Origin: Spirochaetia bacterium
GTDB lineage: Bacteria; Spirochaetota; Spirochaetia; SZUA-6; Bin103
Length of the DNA stretch: 64,000 bases
Reading direction: 5' to 3'
Assembly (NCBI GenBank): GCA_965198005.1
Contig: CBDAOI010000003.1
Span: 1,088,001 to 1,152,000 of the forward strand
Below, piece by piece: positions 6,088-57,197 of this stretch. The position numbers and the translations under genes are program-made. Position 1 is the stretch's first letter, and each line of letters opens with the position of its first letter. The notes beneath the pieces were generated by a model. That model was given only the letters and a program-made list of their open reading frames with translations, did not search any database and had not been told where the DNA came from.

Positions 6088-7782
6088 ATGGAAGACGACA
6101 GCCAGACTACTCCCGCATTCGACGACCTGACCGAGCCGGCGGCCGCTCCGGTGGAGCAGCCGGCCGCAGCCGCCGACGCCGATCCTGCGCCGCCGCGGCG
6201 CAACGACCGCAATGACAACGGGGCGGATGAACGGACGGTGCGCCGCGGCCGCAAGCGCCGGCTGCGGGTCGAGCTGGTCGACGACAGAGATGCCGACCAG
6301 TTCCCGGCCGGCCTGATGGAGCGCGAGCGCGACCGGCGGGAACGGCCGGATCGGCAGCGCCCGCGGCGCGACTACGACGGCGGGTCCCACGACGGCATGC
6401 TTCCCGGCCGGCGCCGGGGCCGCGGCCGGGTCCGTGGCGGCAGTCCGCCCCCGGGCGGTCTGCCGCCGGCGCATCTCCCGCCCCCGGCGCCGCTGACCGG
6501 CAACGAGGAGAAGCTGCATATCAACGAGCTGTCGGTAAAGCCGATCACCGAGCTGCGCGCAATGGCGGTCGCCCTGGGCGGCAATCACGAGTCGCTGGTC
6601 TCCATGAAGAAGCAGGAGATCATCTTCACCATCCTCAAGCAGCATACCGAGCGCAACGGCGTGATCTATGCGCACGGCGCGCTCGAGATCCTGCCCGACG
6701 GCTACGGCTTCCTGCGCTCGTCGAACTACAGTTATCTGCCGGGCCCCGACGACATCTACATCTCGCCGTCGCAGATTCGCCTGTTCAATCTCAAGACCGG
6801 CGACACGGTCTCCGGCCAGATCCGCTCGCCCAAGGAGCAGGAGCGGTTCTTCGCCCTGCTGCGCGTGGAAACGGTGAACTTCGACGAGCCGGCGGTAGCC
6901 CAGGGGCGGATCCCGTTCGAGAGTCTTACGCCGCTGTACCCGCACGAGCGGATCAACATGGAAACCGTGAACGGTGAGCCGGCCACGCGCATGATCAACC
7001 TGTTCTGTCCGATCGGAAAAGGGCAGCGCGGTCTGATCGTCTCGCCGCCGCGTGCCGGCAAGACGGTGATCATGCAGCGCATCGCCAACGCCATCACCGA
7101 GAATGATCCCGACATCTTTCTGATCGTGCTGTTGATCGACGAGCGCCCGGAAGAAGTGACCGACATGCAGCGCAACGTGCAGGGCGAGGTGGTGTCCTCT
7201 ACCTTCGACGAGCAGGCCACGCGGCACGTGCAGGTGGCCGAGATGGTGATCGAGAAGGCCAAGCGGCTGGTGGAGCACGGCAAGGACGTGGTGATTCTGC
7301 TCGATTCGATCACCCGGCTGGCGCGGGCCTACAACCAGACCGTGCCCACCTCGGGCAAGATCCTGTCGGGCGGCGTGGACTCGAATGCGCTGCACAAGCC
7401 CAAGCGGTTCTTCGGCGCCGCGCGCAACGTGGAGGGCGGCGGCAGCCTGACCATCGTCGCCACCGCCCTGATCGAGACCGGCAGCCGCATGGACGAGGTG
7501 ATCTTCGAGGAGTTCAAGGGCACCGGCAACATGGAGATCAAGCTCGACCGCCGCCTGGCCGATCGCCGCCTGTACCCGGCGATCAACATCAACGCCTCCG
7601 CCACGCGCAAGGAGGAGCTGCTGCTGACCGAACAGGAACTGGCCAAGATGTGGGTGCTGCGCAAGGTGATCGGGCCGATGGACGAGGTCAGCGTGGTCGA
7701 GCTGCTGCTGGCGCGGATGCGCCTGAGCAAGAACAACGAGGCGTTCCTGCGGTCCATGAACACCACCGCCATCTCCGAGTAG
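6088..7782 (+). CDS. rho: Transcription termination factor Rho with N-terminal low-complexity extension
   Basis: [57 protein letters not shown] before ATG 6088. Confidence 0.97.
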
Positions 7783-8609
7783 TGCCTGACGCCGCGGTCG
7801 CCGCGCGGGAGATCAGCCTGCTGATCGACGGCGCGCGCATTCTCGACCGGGTGGAGCTGACCCTGCGCGCCGGCGAGCGCTGGGTGGTGTTGGGCCCGAA
7901 CGGCAGCGGCAAGACCTCGCTGGTGCGGCTGTTCGCGGGCTACGGCTACCCCTCCACCGGCACGCTGTGGGTACTCGGCGAACGGTTCGGGCGCACCGAC
8001 CTGCGCCGGCTGCGGATCCGGATCGGCTGGGTGCACGGCGACCTGCACTATCAGATTCCCCCGTTCATGACCGCCGCCGAGGTGGTCCTGGCGCGCGCCC
8101 GCGGCGGACTGGTGCTGTACGGCGACGTGCCTGCCGCCGAGGCGGCCCGGGCCTGCGCTCAGCTTGCCCAGCTCGAGGTCGAGATGTTGGCGGCGCGGCG
8201 GTTCGCGACCCTGTCGACCGGCGAGCGCCAGCGCGTCCTGATCGCGCGCGCGCTCGTTCCCGAGGTGGAGCTGCTGCTGCTGGACGAGCCCGCGATCGGT
8301 CTCGATCCGGCGGCGCGCGAGCGGTTCCTGGACGACTTGGCGGCGCTGTATCGGCGGCGTCCCGAGTTGACCGTGGTGTACGTCACCCACGACGTCGGCG
8401 AGCTTACCGCCCACTACGACGGCGTGCTGCTCCTGGACCGGGGACGGGTAGTCGCCTGCGGGCCGCCCGCCGCGGCCCTTACCGGGGCCCATCTGCAGGC
8501 GGTATTCGGTCCGCACTGCCGTCTCGACCGCCACGGCGACCGCTACGCGATCCGGTTCGCCGCGCCGCGACCAGTGCGCCGAACAGCGCCAGCAGCCCGG
8601 CGGCGATGA
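7782..8609 (+). CDS. ABC transporter ATP-binding protein (ModF/YlmA-like)
   Basis: GPNGSGKT, LSTGERQR, LLLLDEP, VTHD; GTG start overlaps the rho stop. Confidence 0.85.
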   Translation: MPDAAVAAREISLLIDGARILDRVELTLRAGERWVVLGPNGSGKTSLVRLFAGYGYPSTGTLWVLGERFGRTDLRRLRIRIGWVHGDLHYQIPPFMTAAEVVLARARGGLVLYGDVPAAEAARACAQLAQLEVEMLAARRFATLSTGERQRVLIARALVPEVELLLLDEPAIGLDPAARERFLDDLAALYRRRPELTVVYVTHDVGELTAHYDGVLLLDRGRVVACGPPAAALTGAHLQAVFGPHCRLDRHGDRYAIRFAAPRPVRRTAPAARRR

Positions 8610-10095
8610 CCGCCGGCAGGTAATCGCCGAAGCGCGTATACACGGTCGGGTGGGTCGGACGGTATACGGGCACCTGCAGCCGCAGGGCGTACTCGGTGAA
8701 CAACGGCGCCGGGGAGCCGATCACGCGTCCCCACGGATCGATGGCGGTGGTCACCCCGCCGTTGGTGGCGCGCACCAGGACCCGCCGGTTCTCCACCGCC
8801 CGCAGCTTGGCCGCCACCAGGTGCTGGGTCTCGGCAGACACGGTCCGCGACCAGGCGTCGTTGGTCAGGTTGATCAGCAGGTCGGCGCCGGCGCGTACGA
8901 AGCGCCGGTTGATGTAGGGAAAGGAATCTTCGAAGCAGATCGGCGCGGCGAAGCGGAGCGTGCCTCCGGCGCGCAGGGGCAGCGCAAACACGGTCCATCT
9001 GCTGCCCGCCGCCCAGGTGGCGTGCAGCCCGACGACGTCATTGAAGAAGCGCCGCACCGCCGGCACCTCCCAGAACGGCACGCTCTCCGCGAACGGCACC
9101 AGATGGCGCTTGCCGTAGTGGTCCAGCACCCGGCCGCCGGGGCCGACCAGGAGGGCCGCGTTCATCGCCTGCACCGGGTCGTGTTCCAGCAGCCACGGAA
9201 TGCCGGTCAGCAGCGGCACCGACAGACCGGTAACCGCGGCCGGTACGCGCGGTTGCGTCGTCTCCCCGCCGGGGAGGACCGGGTACGTTACCGCCGTCTC
9301 GCTCCATACCACCAGGTCCGGCGGGTGCCGGCGGGCCGCGATCGCGTCGGCGGTGAGGCGTTGCAGCGTCTCCACGGTCTCCTCGGCATCGCCGGTCAAC
9401 CACGGATTGCTGTTGTGCTGGACCAGGACCAGGTCAGCGGTGCCGGTGGCGGGGATCTCCCTGCCCAGTGCGGCGGTGCCGTAGCCGAGCGCGGCCGCCA
9501 CCAGGCACGCCACCGCCGCGGTGCCCCTCCACCGGTGCGCCGGGATGGGAGTGCCGCGCGGGTAGAGCGCCGGCTCGAGCCACTCGGCCGCGATCGCGTT
9601 GACCAGCGCCATCAGCAGCGACAGCCCCCAGACGCCGGTAATGTCGACCAACTGGATCAGGGGCGTGAGGCCGTGCACGGGATAGGCGATCAGGCCCCAC
9701 GGGTAGCCGAGAAAGCCGGACGACTTGAGATACTCGTAGAGCGCCCACACCGCGGCGATCGCGAACGGACGGTAGGTCGCGGGTACGCTGGAGGTGAACC
9801 GCAGGATCGGGGCCAGCAGCGCATGCCAACCGAGGTAGGCGAGGGTGACGCCCCCCAGAGTCCAGACCGAGAAATCCTGAAAGAAGAGCAGCCAGTAGTT
9901 GGTCAGCAGGCTCGAGAGCGTGCCGAACACGGCCCCGATGCCCACCGCCTGACGGTAGCTCGGCGTGTGGTAGAGCGCGACCAGCAACGGCGCCAGGGCG
10001 ACCGTCCCGAACAGCGGACTGCCGAGGGAAAACAGCTCGTTGGGCAGGGCCAGCGCGAGCAGCACCGCCGAGACGACGGCGAGCAGCAGGCGCAG
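8479..10095 (-). CDS. lnt: Apolipoprotein N-acyltransferase (copy 2); start codon uncertain
   Basis: WSETA / YGKRHLVPFAE / PICFEDSF triad, TVYTRFGDY. Candidate starts: CTG 10095, GTG 10065, or TTG 10140 inside tRNA-Leu. Confidence 0.9.
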   Translation of the reverse strand: MRLLLAVVSAVLLALALPNELFSLGSPLFGTVALAPLLVALYHTPSYRQAVGIGAVFGTLSSLLTNYWLLFFQDFSVWTLGGVTLAYLGWHALLAPILRFTSSVPATYRPFAIAAVWALYEYLKSSGFLGYPWGLIAYPVHGLTPLIQLVDITGVWGLSLLMALVNAIAAEWLEPALYPRGTPIPAHRWRGTAAVACLVAAALGYGTAALGREIPATGTADLVLVQHNSNPWLTGDAEETVETLQRLTADAIAARRHPPDLVVWSETAVTYPVLPGGETTQPRVPAAVTGLSVPLLTGIPWLLEHDPVQAMNAALLVGPGGRVLDHYGKRHLVPFAESVPFWEVPAVRRFFNDVVGLHATWAAGSRWTVFALPLRAGGTLRFAAPICFEDSFPYINRRFVRAGADLLINLTNDAWSRTVSAETQHLVAAKLRAVENRRVLVRATNGGVTTAIDPWGRVIGSPAPLFTEYALRLQVPVYRPTHPTVYTRFGDYLPAVIAAGLLALFGALVAARRTGSRSGRRGGRDGSADRIPPADGPR

Positions 10096-44750: not shown

Positions 44751-45089
44751 CTATCCCTGACCTGCGGCGAGCTCCAATACCTCTTCGGCCCACTGATTCA
44801 GGCTCTTGCCCGATATTTCTGCCGCCATGGCAGCCTTGCGGTGCGTTTCCGGGCTGACACGGAACATCACCCGGCCGGAGTAGGCCTTCTGGGGCTCCTT
44901 GCCGACCTTGGCGCAGGTCTCGAGGTAATCCTCGACTGCCTCGTGGAAGGCGAGTCTCAGGCCGTCCACCGATTCGGCGTGAAAGCCCACGCCATCCCGA
45001 ATCCCCGCGATCCGTCCCGTGAAGATTCGGTCGTCGTCGTCATATTCGATCCGGGCCGCGTAGCCCTTGTAGATCATGGTGTTTCTCAT
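44751..45089 (-). CDS. hicB: HicB family antitoxin
   Basis: YKGYAARIEYDDDDRIFTG...FHEAVEDYLETC...YSGRVMFRVSPETH..SLNQW. Confidence 0.92.
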   Translation of the reverse strand: MRNTMIYKGYAARIEYDDDDRIFTGRIAGIRDGVGFHAESVDGLRLAFHEAVEDYLETCAKVGKEPQKAYSGRVMFRVSPETHRKAAMAAEISGKSLNQWAEEVLELAAGQG

Positions 45090-45340
45090 GGGGTTACTCC
45101 GATCCGTTGCAGGAACGCACGGGCCGCGCGGACCTGGTAGCGTTTGGCCTCTTTTGTAGGATGCGGTCGGTGGAACGTCTCGATCTCGCCATCCTTCTCG
45201 AACCGCACCCGTGATCCTCGGCCCTCGATCAGCCGCGCACCGGCAGCGACAAGAAGGCTCTCGATCGCCGCCCACTCGATGGTGCCCGACAGCGGGTCCG
45301 TGAAGATGGCGGCAAGGGTCTTTCGTTGCTTGCTGTTCAA
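45086..45340 (-). CDS. hicA: HicA family toxin
   Basis: NSKQRKTLAAIF...IEWAAIESLL...EGRGSRVRF...FHRPHP.KEAKRYQV; TTG start, ATGA overlap with hicB. Confidence 0.92.
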   Translation of the reverse strand: MNSKQRKTLAAIFTDPLSGTIEWAAIESLLVAAGARLIEGRGSRVRFEKDGEIETFHRPHPTKEAKRYQVRAARAFLQRIGVTP

Positions 45341-45355
45341 CAGGCATAGGTTACA

Positions 45356-49930: not shown

Positions 49931-52900
49931 TCACCAACACCTGATCGTGGTGCGGCCACCGCCCGTGCTGGTGCGGATGAACTCGCCGCCGAGCCGCGTC
50001 CGGGCGTCGTGGCCGAGGGCGCGGGCGAACGGCGCCATATCGTGGGCTGTGTAGGTCAGGCGCAGGACGTGATGGCGGACCATCTCGCGGGCGGTCGTGT
50101 CGCCGAAACGCCGATCGTAGTCGTTGGGTGCGATTACGGGCAGTTGCTCGACTATGTACCAGTTCAGATTTGTGCCCTGAACTTTCTGTCTCGCCACGAA
50201 GTCTACCGGGATGGCGCTCAGATTCGCCCCGAGACAGGCGGCGGCGAGACCGTCACCTCCCACGAGAAGAGGGACCTTGTTGCCATAACCCGCCCACGGG
50301 ACGACCGCCGTTACGACCGTTCGTACGTCGGTCGGCCTGGCGATATCGCGGAAGCCCAAGGCCCATCCTCGCGCGCGAGGAATCCTTGACTCCACGTCCT
50401 TCGCTGGAACCCAGTACTGCGTCCGCGGAAGGAAGCCGGGATCTGCATGCTGGGCGTCGCTCACGGCTTCACTCACATACGGATTGTGCGTGTTCTGTGG
50501 GTTGATACGTACCGAGTTGGCGCGGTGATCGAAATGCGAAATCATCCGACCCTGGTATAGGGGCAGATACCACTCATCCGCTTTCTTATAGCGGTTGCCC
50601 TCGACCAGGTAGAAGCCCGCGGTTTCGAGCTCGGCAGCGGTGCGGAACAAGGCGGAGTCGTTGGTCATGTCGAACATTCGGTAGTAGCGCACCGGCCAGA
50701 CGCGCCGTTCCTCGGAGCCCGAGCGATCGACGAGCACCGGGTGTCGTTCGTAGATGCGACGCGTGATGTCGGCGTCGCGGCGGGTGCGGAACACGGGGGC
50801 GGTGCCGGTGTTGGGGTTCACCCGGGCGAAGTCGTCCGGCGTCAGCGGGAAGCAACGCTGCGGGTCGTCGACGGTGCCGGTGTCGTGCAGGAAGAAGGCG
50901 CACTTGGTCTGCGCGAAGCGGCGCTCGTCGCCGCCGAAGATGAGCGCGCAGAACTTGAACCGCGAATCGACGTCCGGGAAGAATGGTGGCAGCTCGGTGC
51001 CAAGACGGCGGTTCTCGAAGTCGAACAGGCCGCCGATTCTGCCGGTGGTGGAGAGGCTCTTGAAGAAGCGGGCGGCGGTCTTGTCGGCGTAGATGCCGGA
51101 TGGCGTGAGCAGGCCTACCAGTCCGTCGGGCGTCACCAAGCTCATGGCGCGTTCGACGAACAGCGAGTAGAGGTTGATGTCGCCGCCGCCGAGCAGCGGG
51201 TAGCTGCCGGACATGCGCACCATGCGGCCGAGTTGGTCGGCACGCCCCTTGGCGGCGTCGAAGTCCGCCGCCAGCGGCTCACTCCGGTCCCGCAGTCGCC
51301 GGATCGCGGCGCGCCGGGCGGCCGCGGTCGGGGCAAGGGCGATCTCCCGAGCACGGGTCGCGAACCACTCCACCTCCTGCAGCTTGATCCGGTCCCAGGG
51401 CGGATTGCCGATCACGGCGTCGAAGCCGCCTTCGGGCCGGCGGTTCTGCCAGTGCCGCCATACGCCGGGAAAGGCCGCCTGCCAATGCAGGAATGCCTCC
51501 CGCCGCGCAATGGCTCTGGCTTCCTGCCAGCGCTCGCGCAGCGTTGCCCAGTGTTCCTGGTCGACGTCGTCGGCGCCGTCACCCCCGGAATCCGGCCCAC
51601 GCGCCAGAATCCGGTACGCATCGGTGGGTTTTCGGCTGAGCGTTGCCGCCAGCGGCGTCTCGAATTGGGAGCGCGCCGTGGTTTTCATGCCGGCGCTCAT
51701 CCACTGCAGTCCGCAGAGAAAATCGAGCAACCCACGCAGGTCGGCCGTGGTCTCCTCTACACCGCGAAACGCCGACGCCGACTCGTGCACCTCCACCACG
51801 TCGGCATCCGACATCTCCTCGATCCGCGCCATCCCCTCCGCGGCGACCTCCGCGCCGGCCATCGCCGAACCGGCAAACAACCCGCCGAGCCGATCCAGCT
51901 CGCGAATCGCGTCCCGCACCCGGATCCCGATCAGCGAGTCGCCGCACCGCAGGTGATGGTCGAGGAACGACAGCGGCGCACCTGCGGTGAAGCTGTGCAA
52001 CCACAGCGAGACCTTCGCCAGTTCCACGGTCAGGCGGTTCTTGTCCACCCCGTAGATGCAGCGCTTGAGCACCATGCGCCGGATGATGGCCTGGTCCGTG
52101 AGCTGGGCGACGTCGATGATCCAGTTGCCTGCCTGCGCCCGGTGCAGAATCCCCCGCCGAATCTCGGCGATCCGGCCTACCAGGGGCGATTCATAGGCGC
52201 CGTCGGACCACTCCGGCACGCCCGGCACGTATTCGATCAACTCGGCGATGTAGTCGGACAGGAAGTCGACAGCGCTTACCAGAAAGTGGCCGCTGCCCAT
52301 GGCCGGATCGAGCACCTTGAGCCGCAGCACCGCTTCCGCCGGATCCAGCCGTGCCAGCGTCGCCATCCGAACGGCCTTGGGGCGGCGATCGGTCGCAAGC
52401 TCGTGCGCCCTGGCCTCGAACGCACGCAACCGCTCCTCCGCCAGCGGTTTGAGTGTCTGGTCCACGATCAGGTCGACCAGTTCCTGCGGCGTGTAGAAAC
52501 TGCCGCTGTCCTTGCGGGCGTAGGAGTCGAGCCGGATCTCCACGCCGCCGTCTGCCGTGCGCGTGGGTTCGCGTTCGAGGAGGCGTTCGTAGATGGAACC
52601 GAGTTGCTGCACCGACATGTCGCGGTAGTTGACGAAACGGCGGGCACCATTGTCCTGCTGGCCCGCCGCCGTGTGGCTGAGGTCGTAAATGACGTCCGCC
52701 ACCACCGTGTCCGGGACCCGGACTTGCTGCAGGATCGGCGCGGCCTCGGGCGCGAACAGGCCGCCGTTGTAGGGCGGCAGGCCGATCGACTCATCGCCCT
52801 GGTCGATCTGTCGGAACAGCTCGGTCAGGCGGTTGTAGTAGTGACCGGCGGTGGAGGAAAAGGTGTCGCCCTCGGCCATGCGGCGCGCAACATCCTCGCG

Positions 52901-53815: not shown

Positions 53816-54010
53816 GATCGGGTGTAAGACCGGAGCCCGGCTCGACTCTGGCCATCATAGCAGACAGATGCAGATGTCGTCGTACTGCATCGTCGAGTGA
53901 CTCGAACAGGGTGTCACGGTAGGATGCCCCCGGGGTCCGTGGCTACCGAGGGTGTAGACCTCGCGTGTTCCGGATTACGATAGTCCCCACGGCATAGATT
54001 GATGTTGGCA

Positions 54011-54262
54011 TTACCCACTACGTGCAGTATGGACGCTGGCTGGGAATGGCATGGTATCGTTCTCATCGATTATACACTCAATGCCTGACACATAGCAGAT
54101 TAGGGAGCGTTTGGTGCGTTCCTGAATCTGATTGATTAGCGTTTGCCGTTGGTAGCGACTTGCGTGATTTGCCTCGAATAACGGCGTCTTGCTGGCTGGT
54201 CGCGAACCATCCTTGGCCGACGAAGGATCGCCGCTACTCTCTTGTGTCGACTCGTCGGTCAT
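54011..54262 (-). pseudogene. N-terminal fragment of a putative SDH/Clp-fold serine protease
   Basis: KTPLFEANHASRYQRQTLINQIQERTKRSLICYVSG...IDENDTMPF, then an early stop; GAGGAG RBS. Confidence 0.5.
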
Positions 54263-54266
54263 GGGG

Positions 54267-54617
54267 TTACTCCTCGTTCGTACAAATTGCCCATCGGATC
54301 CTACCATCGCGGATGGTGAAGTGGCAGCGGCGTTGAGCAGTGATGTCGTCGATGCTAGGACGGATCGACAGCGGTTTTCGAGACTCGATCCTCCAGAATG
54401 GGTATCGGGTGATGTCCAGATTCACCATGAGTCGATGCCGCGTTCGGCAGGGGCAGTCGAAAACAGCCCAGGTCGCGCGATCTCGTGTCACGACAAGAAC
54501 TACGCCTCGGTAGGGTAGGCGCTCAGCTACGTCGTCACCCGCCTCGACGTGTCCGACAACCCGCCAGGAGCGCCAGGGGAGCGGTAGCGATTGCCACCAA
54601 GGAAACAACCCTTTCAT
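54267..54617 (-). CDS. DUF6527-like small Cys/His metal-binding protein
   Basis: WAVFDCPC..RH.LMVNL....P.W......LSIRPSI.......CHFTIRDGRIRW; ATGA overlap with the E1 gene. Confidence 0.8.
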   Translation of the reverse strand: MKGLFPWWQSLPLPWRSWRVVGHVEAGDDVAERLPYRGVVLVVTRDRATWAVFDCPCRTRHRLMVNLDITRYPFWRIESRKPLSIRPSIDDITAQRRCHFTIRDGRIRWAICTNEE

Positions 54618-55612
54618 CCCTGCCATGTCTGCTCCAGGAACGGTTCGGTGACGCCAAGTCCGAGTTTCTGAGCCTGTGGATGGCAATAGTGACGTTCGCG
54701 AGGTTCCTGGTCGTTCGTGGACACCTCACGCTCATGCGAGCGGAGCAGTATTTCCGTGGGGGCAGGGTCAGGCCCATAGTGAATGAGTCGCTCGAGCAGT
54801 TCGCTTACGGCCGCTGAGGCAACCTGCGTCGTAAACGCCACGACCGCGGGCTCGGGGTCTGCCAGCGCGGGCGCGTAGCCTTCTTCGGCGAGTCGACGGT
54901 ACTCAGATGGGTTGAGCATTTCAGCGGCTGCACGCTGTAAGTCAACGCGGTTGCGACAGACCAGGCACCCAGCGCCCGGGGCGAGGACTGTCACGCGGCC
55001 GTCGATTCCAACAAGTTGCCCTCCGGAGCCACTGCTCAGCAGCACACCGCAATCGATGACGGGAGTCAACAGGTACGACGCGATGCGCGACAGCACGAGC
55101 CGACCAGCGTTGTCATCGGTGCAGCCGAACACGACATCAGCGTCAAGCAGCAGTCTGGCCGTGGATTCGATCGTAATCTTGGTCTGTGCGGTCGTCACTT
55201 CGGCATCGGGCGCGATTCGGCTCACGTGGGCGGCACTCAGGCTTACTTTCGGCTGGCCGACGCAATGGAGGTAGGATCCGTATACGCGCGTGACGTTCCC
55301 GGCAGTCAACGTATCGGGATCAAACAACTGCAGATGACGTACGCCGAGACGGACGAGTTGCTCGATAACTGCCGACCCGGTGCCACCGCAGCCGACGACA
55401 GCGATGCGAAGATTGCCGAGAACCTGTTGTATTTTGCCGCCGAAGGCTCTGATGTTCCGGTCGAATTGCTCAGAAGGTGGCGTTGTGCCGTGGAGCCAAT
55501 TCTGCATGAGCGCGAAACGCCGGCCGGTCACCCACAGGCGATCGATCTCGGTTCGCCGGTTTTCGGATTCGACGTGGCCCGTGAAACACAGTTGGCCCCG
55601 GGGCCGCGCCAT
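54614..55612 (-). CDS. ThiF/MoeB (E1-like) adenylyltransferase, C-terminal part of a JAB-E1 fusion
   Basis: VVGCGGTGS, DPDTL...NVTR, PKV, GCTDD..GR, CLVC. Confidence 0.9.
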   Translation of the reverse strand: MARPRGQLCFTGHVESENRRTEIDRLWVTGRRFALMQNWLHGTTPPSEQFDRNIRAFGGKIQQVLGNLRIAVVGCGGTGSAVIEQLVRLGVRHLQLFDPDTLTAGNVTRVYGSYLHCVGQPKVSLSAAHVSRIAPDAEVTTAQTKITIESTARLLLDADVVFGCTDDNAGRLVLSRIASYLLTPVIDCGVLLSSGSGGQLVGIDGRVTVLAPGAGCLVCRNRVDLQRAAAEMLNPSEYRRLAEEGYAPALADPEPAVVAFTTQVASAAVSELLERLIHYGPDPAPTEILLRSHEREVSTNDQEPRERHYCHPQAQKLGLGVTEPFLEQTWQG

Positions 55613-55995
55613 GACATCGCTCCGTACAGGGGACTCGCTGCGCGGAGTCGGAAGAGGTCAGAAAGCTGTCGGTCGACGAGTTCGTCGTGCTTGCTCGGCT
55701 TGGGCGATGAGTCGATGCCGGGATGGGTATGCAACCAGATCGGGACGGACCGGTCGGCCTCCGCAGCAGCGAGGGCGGGGACGTAGCCATTGGAGGCAAC
55801 GCTGAGCCCGGTTGCATCGCGCCGACGGTAGGCGTCATCCGGCACCCAATGCAACGCACGGGCGAGCAAGCGGACATTGTCGCCGGGAGTGTCCACTTGC
55901 CGCGCCAGCAGAACGCAGGCGGACTCCGTTTCAGCCGCTGCCGCGTCAAAGAGCTCGGCTGCGAGTTGGTCCGGCAGTACCAGCGTGACGGCCAT
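55613..55995 (-). CDS. JAB/MPN+ metallopeptidase domain, N-terminal part of the frameshifted JAB-E1 fusion
   Basis: ETESAC...WLHTHPG....PS..D motif; start ATG 55995 is TGATG-coupled to E2; as sequenced the frame stops at 55528. Confidence 0.85.
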
Positions 55996-56384
55996 CAAGC
56001 CACCTTCGGCACGCTGTGTTCCAGGTCCTGCCGGATCAGGGAGAGGAAGCTCGCAAGGCCATCGACTCCGGATTGCCACTGTCCGTTGTTGAAGTGTCTC
56101 GACCAGCGTTGCCACTGGCGACCCAGGTACACCTCGACGACGCTGGTGGCAGGCAGAGCCACGCCGTTGGCCAAGTGCACTGCCGGATAGAACCACCACA
56201 TGTCGGGGGGGACATCGGGATAGCCGGGACTGAGCCGAACCAGGAGATCCGATGCATTGCGATCCAGCCCTTTCGGGAGCGGCCACTGCGGTATCACGAC
56301 ACATATCATGCCGGACTCGGTCGCGACCTCATGAACGACACCTCGTTCGTTCAGGTACGTGATGTCCGCTTGGGGAAGAGTCAT
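55995..56384 (-). CDS. Prokaryotic E2/UBC-like protein (Prok-E2_E type, Ser at the active-site position)
   Basis: WPLPKG...LLVRLSPGYPDVPPDMWWFYP...WQRWSRH...W.SGVDGL. Confidence 0.88.
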   Translation of the reverse strand: MTLPQADITYLNERGVVHEVATESGMICVVIPQWPLPKGLDRNASDLLVRLSPGYPDVPPDMWWFYPAVHLANGVALPATSVVEVYLGRQWQRWSRHFNNGQWQSGVDGLASFLSLIRQDLEHSVPKVA

Positions 56385-56392
56385 GGCGATTG

Positions 56393-56443
56393 CTACGCCC
56401 TCACGCGGAAAGCGTGGTTGGTGCCAGGGTTGATCGTCCACAT
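56393..56443 (-). pseudogene. Possible C-terminal stub of a ubiquitin-like protein (MWTINPG-TNHAFRVRA*)
   Basis: 16-codon ORF ending 8 nt before the E2 start, at the position where the Ubl gene is expected. Confidence 0.4.
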
Positions 56444-56466
56444 TCTCCGATAGCACAATGTGCAGC

Positions 56467-56679
56467 ATGAGACCCGTCAAAGCGATGACGATTCGCCTGT
56501 CTGCCGACCAGTCAGAGCAGTTGAGCACGATCGCGGCCGTCGACGGTCAGCCAGTATCGCATGTGATCCGCTCGGCAATCGCCGAGCACATCAAGGGGCG
56601 CAGACGTGACGCCGAGTTTCAGGACATGCTCCGTCAGCGCATCGAGCGCGAGCAACGGATGCTGCCAAATGACGAATAG
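56467..56679 (+). CDS. Ribbon-helix-helix (CopG-like) protein, possible orphan antitoxin
   Basis: KAMTIRLSADQSEQLSTIAAVDGQPVSHVIRSAIAEHI. Confidence 0.8.
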   Translation: MRPVKAMTIRLSADQSEQLSTIAAVDGQPVSHVIRSAIAEHIKGRRRDAEFQDMLRQRIEREQRMLPNDE

Positions 56680-57197
56680 CGTGAGCGGGCGGCGCTACGA
56701 GCGACGCGCCCGACAACCACGCTACCGCTTCAGGCGAGCCGCGTTCAATCTCCGCTGCAACCTCTCCATGCTCGCGCACCACCACCGGGTGAGCAGCAGT
56801 GGGCACGCACTGGGAGCGCCGCGCCGCGTTGGCGTCCTGCTGCACCAGCTCCACGAACTCATGGTCACCGATCATGACGCGCCGGAGGTTACCGATCCAT
56901 ATTCCATATAGCGATAGCGGTTCGTTGCGGCGCTCACCGCGGGCGCCGTTCATCAGACGAGCTTCAGCAGCCCAGAGGCGATCTCTCATCGGACACCTGT
57001 CGGCATGCCATTGGCTCGGTGCAGGTCAATGCTTTGCCGTCGCGGTGGCGGTGCACCGGCGCCAGACTCTGTGATCGTTGACTGCCACGCCACGATTCAT
57101 GCACGCCGCGCTATCCTGCATTTTTCCACGGGTCCCTTCGCACATCGACCTCCTTGGGGCACCCAGTAACTTCCTCGGTGTCGACCAGGCGCTGCGC

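Follow-up and report, generated by a model that had tools for sequence, protein, structure and literature searches.

The chemistry of bacterial ubiquitination-like (Bub) operons is known, whereas their biological role is not. In the text of the preprint that describes them (Ye, Gong, Chambers, Corbett; bioRxiv 10.1101/2024.11.21.623953), a loop tyrosine of the E1 and a serine of the E2 form oxyester intermediates, Type II Bub comprises a ubiquitin-like protein (Ubl), an E2-E1 fusion, and BubE, and no phage protection has so far been reported. Type I Bub (6E.1) is represented by BubAB, BubCD, and BubE of Citrobacter sp. RHBSTW-00271 (PDB 9ea4, 9eae, 9eav). This article concerns a related locus in a stretch of 64,000 nucleotides (hereafter, the window) from a Spirochaetia bacterium (assembly GCA_965198005.1, contig CBDAOI010000003.1, positions 1,088,001 to 1,152,000), in which four tightly packed minus-strand reading frames are found between 54011 and 56384. 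A first-pass annotation, made from the letters of the window, had proposed a Bub-like conjugation module with an attached ClpP-fold protease. The family assignment is upheld by alignments with Citrobacter BubB and BubCD, and we consider it highly probable (roughly 0.85) that the locus is what is left, in a state of decay, of a Type I Bub-like (6E) cassette for ubiquitin-like conjugation that was acquired horizontally. The window copy is not a working module, and the pathway cannot run in the window genome, because the Ubl gene is deleted, the catalytic part of the protease is lost, and the JAB-E1 gene is frameshifted in most of the populations sampled; the loss of the Ubl gene was missed by the first-pass annotation. 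The parts of the locus are as follows.

56458..56679, plus strand: ribbon-helix-helix (RHH; DUF6290/CopG-like) gene, intact and divergent from the operon; Pfam DUF6290 4.8e-05 and RHH_1 0.0011, both under the cut-offs
56393..56437, minus strand: remnant of the Ubl gene (Multi_ubiq, BubA-like), the last 14 codons (56396-56437; ..TINPG and tail) and the stop
55995..56384, minus strand: E2 gene (BubB-like, Prok-E2_E), 129 aa, intact; Pfam 2.2e-36; Ser95-x-His97 in WQRWSRH
54614..55995, minus strand: JAB-E1 (BubCD-like) pseudogene; ThiF 1.3e-36, Prok-JAB weak (0.005)
54267..54617, minus strand: DUF6527 (BubE-like) gene, 116 aa, intact; Pfam 1.3e-16
54011..54262, minus strand: 5′ stub of an SDH/ClpP-like serine protease gene, approximately the first 77 residues of a gene of about 305 aa; no catalytic motifs
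54018..54048, plus strand: YVQYGRW fragment of an ABC peptide-permease coding sequence, about 30 nt at the protease truncation junction, found by translation, blastn-short, and pattern search

Related loci were collected by a scan with one genome per species, which yielded 169 pattern matches, of which 117 encode an E2 relative; the best 80 were kept (L003-L082). Among these, L006 is the related locus in a genome of the same genus (G001), and L007 supplied the protease query (9092-10054, 321 aa). The surviving genes of the window retain all residues conserved in the E2, JAB, E1, and DUF6527 families. The WQRWSRH motif of the E2, in which the first-pass annotation had correctly read Ser for the usual catalytic Cys, is invariant in 80 E2 sequences, and the protein aligns to Citrobacter BubB (PDB 9eae) with an E value of 9.7e-12, QRWSRH falling on QRWSRH. 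In the JAB part, E24, H89, H91, S101, and D104 are invariant in 75 sequences. The E1 part carries the CLVC motif followed by a Cys-free crossover loop containing EEGY, as had been read from the letters (CxxC, then no Cys); E244-G245-Y246 is invariant in 71 E1 sequences, whereas the other loop tyrosine (Y238) is not, and in the alignment to Citrobacter BubCD (PDB 9ea4; E 1e-24) ..EEGYAP.. falls on ..ERGYIT.. in the crossover loop. The Cys/His protein downstream was rightly described as DUF6527-like; its Ser88 and His99 are invariant and Cys55, Cys57, and Cys98 conserved (69 sequences). The gene coupling noted in the first-pass annotation is likewise present, a TGATG overlap joining E2 and JAB and an ATGA overlap joining E1 and DUF6527. 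PADLOC offers only generic E1-E2 models that match the adenylation domain, with no models for the E2, DUF6527, Ubl, RHH, or protease. The RHH gene occupies the same divergent position in 71 of the 80 related loci, and its product is likely a repressor of the cassette. Of the families named in advance by the first-pass annotation, ThiF, Prok-E2_E, and DUF6527 were thus matched and Prok-JAB weakly so, while the SDH family was reached in homologues only. The ThiF-family matches include MoeB and ThiF at E values of 1e-12 to 1e-13, as would be expected if the E1-like and β-grasp genes served sulfur-carrier or cofactor biosynthesis; this explanation is scarcely credible and is contradicted by the gene content, since BubCD, at 1e-24, scores best in the PDB, the operon holds an E2, a JAB domain, and DUF6527, and the cassette contains no ThiS/MoaD, rhodanese, or biosynthetic genes.

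The losses in the window copy are best seen against its relatives. Window positions 56678-56438 correspond to L006 6388-6627 and window positions 56437-55828 to L006 6937-7545 (blastn); the window has lost 309 bp, which made up the body of the Ubl gene, at the junction 56438/56437, and the deletion is clean. The spacing between the RHH and E2 genes is 74 nt in the window, where homologues hold a Multi_ubiq gene of about 95 aa, and tblastn to the remnant recovers residues 85-98 of the Ubl only. The JAB-E1 region, which the first-pass annotation had treated as one gene, shows JAB and E1 homology and is not one open reading frame (ORF): its length, 1382 nt, is not divisible by 3, JAB is read from 55995 as far as a stop at 55528 and E1 in another frame from 55612 to 54614, and relative to six homologues one base is missing between 55616 and 55615, outside any long homopolymer. 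The homologues are one ORF of 460 aa. The ORF at 54011-54262, correctly located in the first-pass annotation and with homologues in the ClpP-like family PF01972, is a stub (83-98 aa) without a Pfam match of its own. It aligns to residues 4-98 of the 321-aa L007 query, or approximately the first 77 residues when numbered from the 311-aa start used elsewhere; the alignment is lost after ..DTMPF, the window and L007 share DNA homology no further than 54044, and the stub stops before the HTxGG and AKSAGT motifs. The YVQYGRW fragment lies at this junction. It gives 98 blastn-short matches in the genome, and its 22-nt core occurs in 120 copies (≤3 mismatches), all in permease-like coding sequence, which accounts for the odd tail of the stub ORF and for a peak of depth in the read data. 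The genome evidently holds a very large family of ABC peptide-permease-type transporters. It comprises four contigs (90% complete), encodes one E2 and one DUF6527, and yields no Multi_ubiq match over the cut-off (best 18 bits); neither a cassette Ubl nor a full-length protease was found in it, the L007 query retrieving residues 4-98 only.

The same lesions are found in contigs from four public runs (X1, X2, X5, and X6; three studies) that were compared with window positions 53900-56700, with the limit that one of these runs may be the source of the window assembly, so that their independence is incomplete. The Ubl-deletion junction is spanned by contigs with 0 differences in all four runs. The protease-truncation junction is also spanned in all four, by three contigs with 0 differences and a fourth with one substitution and one indel elsewhere. 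The 1-nt deletion in JAB-E1 is present in contigs of X1, X2, and X5, whereas X6 has an otherwise identical contig of 570 nt with one extra base at the indel, which restores the frame; furthermore, a relative of about 91% identity with an intact JAB-E1 frame occurs in X1 and X6. Both junctions being carried by all four runs and the frameshift being absent from X6, the loss of the Ubl gene and the truncation of the protease are fixed, and the JAB-E1 frameshift is recent and polymorphic. The lesions are real. That they are assembly or sequencing errors in an operon intact in the organism might be suspected from a four-contig, 90% complete assembly and from the fact that a single-base indel is a common type of error; this is very improbable and largely refuted by the bridging of both deletion junctions in the contigs of four runs, by the recurrence of the 1-nt deletion in three of the four, and by the position of the indel outside a long homopolymer.

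What the window copy has lost is evident from the intact cassettes of its relatives. Profiles built from the 80 loci and searched in all six frames detect the E2 in 80, the Ubl in 78, JAB in 78, E1 in 74, RHH in 71, DUF6527 in 70, and the protease in 67, and all seven parts (JAB and E1 counted apart) are present in 64. The intact order is a divergent RHH gene, followed by the Multi_ubiq Ubl, E2, JAB-E1, DUF6527/BubE, and an SDH/ClpP-like serine protease. The co-occurrence of Ubl and protease with the E2, put forward as a check by the first-pass annotation, was therefore observed, and a cofactor context was not seen. The 13 loci without the protease are of three kinds: in four, the DNA ends before that position (L055, L063, L073, L079); five are decayed or cut short (L005, L006, L013, L032, L040); and four have an intact core with neither RHH nor protease (L059, L067, L069, L075). 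Decay of the cassette is common, 5 of the other 80 loci being cut short. In the sister copy L006 (6390-10009), the Ubl and E2 are intact, only residues 1-56 and 173-301 of JAB-E1 are left, DUF6527 and the protease are gone, and an ORF resembling a DNA methyltransferase (DPPY motif) precedes a restriction-modification (RM) gene; a second, divergent cassette in the same genome (C1:4945-4949 kb) is intact. The Ubl gene of the relatives, of approximately 90-130 aa, lies between the RHH gene and the E2 and matches Pfam Multi_ubiq at up to 4.6e-27. An invariant ..INPG, with 0-12 variable residues after it, closes its product, as one would expect if the JAB domain trims a precursor. In L017 (6593-7387) and L040 (6734-7378), Ubl and E2 lie in one open frame, elsewhere in the clade being separate genes; these fusions tie the clade to BubAB.

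The distribution of the cassette bears on its origin. The 80 loci come from Acidobacteriota, Chloroflexota, Actinomycetota, Planctomycetota, Nitrospirota, Spirochaetia, Saccharimonadales, and Alpha-, Beta-, Gamma-, and 'delta' proteobacteria, and the clade includes cultured strains of Methylocystis, Phenylobacterium, Bradyrhizobium, and Mesorhizobium. The best 120 E2 relatives are 129-145 aa long and 67-88% identical; the window E2 shares 81% identity with copies from Vicinamibacterales and 72-73% with those from Dehalococcoidia. Identities of 70-86% between E2 proteins of distant phyla would be explained by horizontal transfer, and the G+C content of the window segment is 58-63% against 67-75% in its flanks; these features point to a horizontal origin of the cassette, as judged from sequence. 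An E2 match is carried by 99 plasmid records, only 7 of which hold a near-full-length protease of the cassette type, and it is in these seven (four Methylocystis, Rhizobium sp. CCGE531, Phenylobacterium, and Microbacterium) that the E2 is most similar. The RefSeq plasmids of Methylocystis bryophila and Phenylobacterium sp. LH3H17 are annotated with DUF6290 or CopG, multiubiquitin, E2/UBC, ThiF, DUF6527, and a hypothetical protein, and on both the last genes of the cassette overlap by 4 nt. No E2 match was obtained in the phage collection searched.

The protease is the conserved sixth gene of the cassette in the relatives, given its presence in 67 of 80 loci and that of the whole cassette in 64; the proposal of an attached protease thus holds for the clade, whereas the window copy is truncated. 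The gene encodes 298-327 aa and matches Pfam PF01972 (SDH_protease) at about 1e-17, with the motifs LHTxGGD, AKSAGT, and SELGPIDPQ conserved among homologues. An AlphaFold2 model built from 35 sequences (mean predicted local distance difference test score, pLDDT, of 90.7) has as its nearest solved folds the 1510-N (NfeD) stomatin-specific protease, ClpP, and SppA, all distant in Foldseek (E ~1e-4, template modeling (TM) score 0.34-0.39 on the query, 10-16% identity), and carries an extra helical C-terminal part of about 130 residues. Whether this gene belongs to the pathway or is a frequent neighbour, i.e., a separate defense or housekeeping gene traveling with Bub, was also considered. The four core-intact loci that lack both protease and RHH would suit the latter, as would the other defense genes that adjoin the cassette and the canonical Type I Bub of Pseudanabaena sp. 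PCC 7367, which in the records and preprint text consulted comprises a helix-turn-helix (HTH) and ImmA/IrrE pair, a multiubiquitin-E2 fusion, ThiF, and DUF6527, with no such protease. We nevertheless regard a mere neighbour as unlikely: of the 70 loci with a DUF6527 gene, 66 have the protease after it, on the same strand and across many phyla; the 4-nt overlaps recur on two annotated plasmids; the gene is retained in a second sub-clade only 34-36% identical; and its relatives are similar in number to those of the E2, namely, 1685 (E ≤ 1e-20) as compared with 1828 (of 1839 candidates; 70-226 aa, E ≤ 0.001).

The protease would most likely be an effector or regulator acting on tagged proteins, which is pure inference. 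No paper linking an SDH-type/PF01972 protease to Bub was found in the literature searched: the terms ClpP, S49, and SDH have 0 occurrences in the main text of the Bub preprint, whose supplementary tables, outside that scope, may list such operons; ClpP has 0 occurrences in the article text of Iyer, Burroughs, and Aravind (2006; PMC1779556), where no ClpP-like protease is given for class 6e; and the cGASylation preprint contains no 6E terms. The C-terminus of the protease was considered as a CBASS-style substrate of the E1 (CBASS, a signaling system against phages that is based on cyclic oligonucleotides) and rejected, the tail K-L/I-F/Y-E-S-x-Y-x-S-L being conserved without a conserved terminal Gly. 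A complex predicted between the Ubl (15-98) and the protease (28-311 of L007), both supplied as alignments, scored 0.00 in two runs and is informative in neither direction.

By homology with the Citrobacter Bub proteins, the JAB domain of intact copies would trim the Ubl tail and expose a C-terminal Gly. After adenylation by the E1, the Ubl would be bound to the loop Tyr of that enzyme through an oxyester, then be carried on the Ser (with the His) of the E2 and passed to target lysines; BubE would remove it. The intact relatives might constitute a third Bub architecture in which the fixed ClpP/NfeD-like sixth gene acts on Ubl-tagged proteins in an oxyester-based tag-then-proteolyse pathway, a possible but rather doubtful extension; the first-pass annotation had likewise proposed that tagging might be coupled to proteolysis. 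If true, Bub systems would gain their missing effector and an output open to test. The clade with protease and RHH offers a new handle on the outcome of Bub tagging; it is large and widely transferred, the clusters found numbering about 1800 for the E2 and about 1700 for the protease. The window copy is an example of stepwise decay of the cassette and, as a dead operon, is itself of little weight.

The same contig as the window locus holds a second, very divergent and apparently intact operon (contig C3, ~600-603.4 kb; L102 5285-7376, minus strand, with the HTH gene at 7445-7813, plus strand). In it, an XRE-type HTH gene is followed by genes for a Ubl of 80 aa with GG at its end (Multi_ubiq 19 bits), an E2-like protein of 134 aa (Prok-E2_E 0.027, S-Y-H motif), and a JAB-E1 of 523 aa (ThiF 1.3e-30, Prok-JAB 6e-05); the next gene (151 aa) was compared and is not DUF6527-like. 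This operon is a candidate source of the Ubl if the window locus were a working reduced module, consisting of E2, BubE, RHH, and, where its frame is intact, JAB-E1, and using a Ubl from elsewhere. Several observations tell against decay and in part speak for such a module: the E2, DUF6527, and RHH genes are full-length with their catalytic residues, so that residual function is possible; the X6 contig carries an intact-frame JAB-E1 allele; and the divergent GG-ending Ubl might conceivably serve in trans, although there is no sign of this. Furthermore, the mechanism is borrowed from Citrobacter proteins of distant similarity, over 100-230 aligned residues (E 1e-11 and 1e-24), and the role given to the protease is pure inference. 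A working module is nonetheless quite improbable. The second Ubl adjoins its own E2 and JAB-E1, ends in ..VVEGG rather than ..INPG, and reaches only 19 bits on Multi_ubiq; in the relatives, the Ubl gene stands directly upstream of the E2 in 78 of 80 loci; and three independent lesions in one operon resemble decay. A remnant in the course of decay therefore remains our preferred interpretation of the window locus.

Downstream of the cassette remnant lies a Type IIG RM gene with Eco57I/MmeI domains (Pfam), matched by the PADLOC models DrmMI and REase_MTase_IIG, and the first-pass annotation had supposed it to be linked with the conjugation genes. A close RM homologue adjoins the cassette in 1 of 80 loci only, namely, L006 of the same genus, two other matches being weak and partial; the link is lineage history and not part of the system. 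Of the 1294 residues of the window RM protein, only 1-1270 align to the orthologue from the same genus, the frame of which continues for about 79 residues more; the window RM gene (3′ end 49931-50010) may be altered at the C-terminus too, as far as its sequence indicates. In the stretch of low G+C content that holds both the RM gene and the Bub remnant, a 198-aa ORF (44754-45347, minus strand) has a HicB antitoxin domain (1.8e-20) at its C-terminus. Among the relatives, a dCTP deaminase defense gene of about 525 aa (PADLOC dCTPase 1e-140; Pfam dCMP_cyt_deam_1) adjoins the cassette in 7-8 loci (L029, L033, L044, L059, L069, L075, L076), after the protease or, where the latter is absent, after DUF6527. 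A Fic/DOC gene, often with a partner of about 70 aa, adjoins the RHH gene in 19 of 80 loci in either orientation (e.g., L074 3273-3848 and L061 5604-6182) and appears likewise in the annotation of the Methylocystis and Phenylobacterium plasmids. RecB-like/superfamily 1 (SF1) helicase-nucleases are near the cassette in 7 loci, and integrases also adjoin it. These neighbours fit mobile defense islands. The window contains no match to the Fic, integrase, or dCTP deaminase genes or to the L006 methyltransferase, and synteny between the window and L006 is absent past the RHH gene.

The locus and its relatives may be compared with several described systems. As judged from the model, the sixth gene product resembles the ClpP/NfeD (1510-N)/SppA clan in its predicted fold, its AKSAGT motif with a putative Ser nucleophile, and its oxyanion-type HTxGG motif; it differs in that the match is distant, the C-terminal part is helical, and no partner ATPase gene is found in the cassette. 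Bil (BilABCD) and Type II CBASS Cap2/Cap3 likewise represent bacterial E1/E2/JAB conjugation in defense islands. They use a catalytic Cys, whereas the window E2 has Ser at the active site and the E1 loop is Cys-free; moreover, CBASS conjugates the cyclase itself without a Ubl, and neither Bil nor CBASS has DUF6527. Type II Bub (6E.2), as described in the preprint text, shares the Multi_ubiq Ubl, DUF6527, and Ser/Tyr oxyester chemistry, an oxyester route having been given for Bub-type operons in the first-pass annotation also, in agreement with that text; there, the E2 is fused to the E1 (BubBD) and JAB is absent, whereas in the present cassette the E2 has a gene of its own and it is JAB that is joined to the E1. 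Class 6e, in the article text of 2006 cited above, has a polyUbl or solo Ubl, a Cys-less E2-like protein, JAB-E1, a small metal-binding protein, and a sporadic, mobile distribution, although its E2 was then considered inactive and it is given without the protease. Type I Bub is the family to which the genes are assigned. As far as the preprint text describes it, it shares with the present locus a Prok-E2_E protein bearing Ser-x-His and, in the homologues (the window ORF being split), a JAB domain joined to an E1 whose crossover loop lacks Cys and keeps an invariant Tyr; further common features are DUF6527 with invariant Ser and His (presumably equivalent to S92/H102 of Citrobacter), a Gly-ending Multi_ubiq Ubl in the relatives, and occurrence on plasmids and islands. 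The window copy differs in being broken and without a Ubl. The cassette clade differs from Type I Bub in further respects: its Ubl and E2 are mostly separate genes, whereas Type I has a fused BubAB; its regulator is an RHH protein, whereas that of Type I is CapW or CapH and CapP; and an SDH/ClpP-like protease is added to the cassette.

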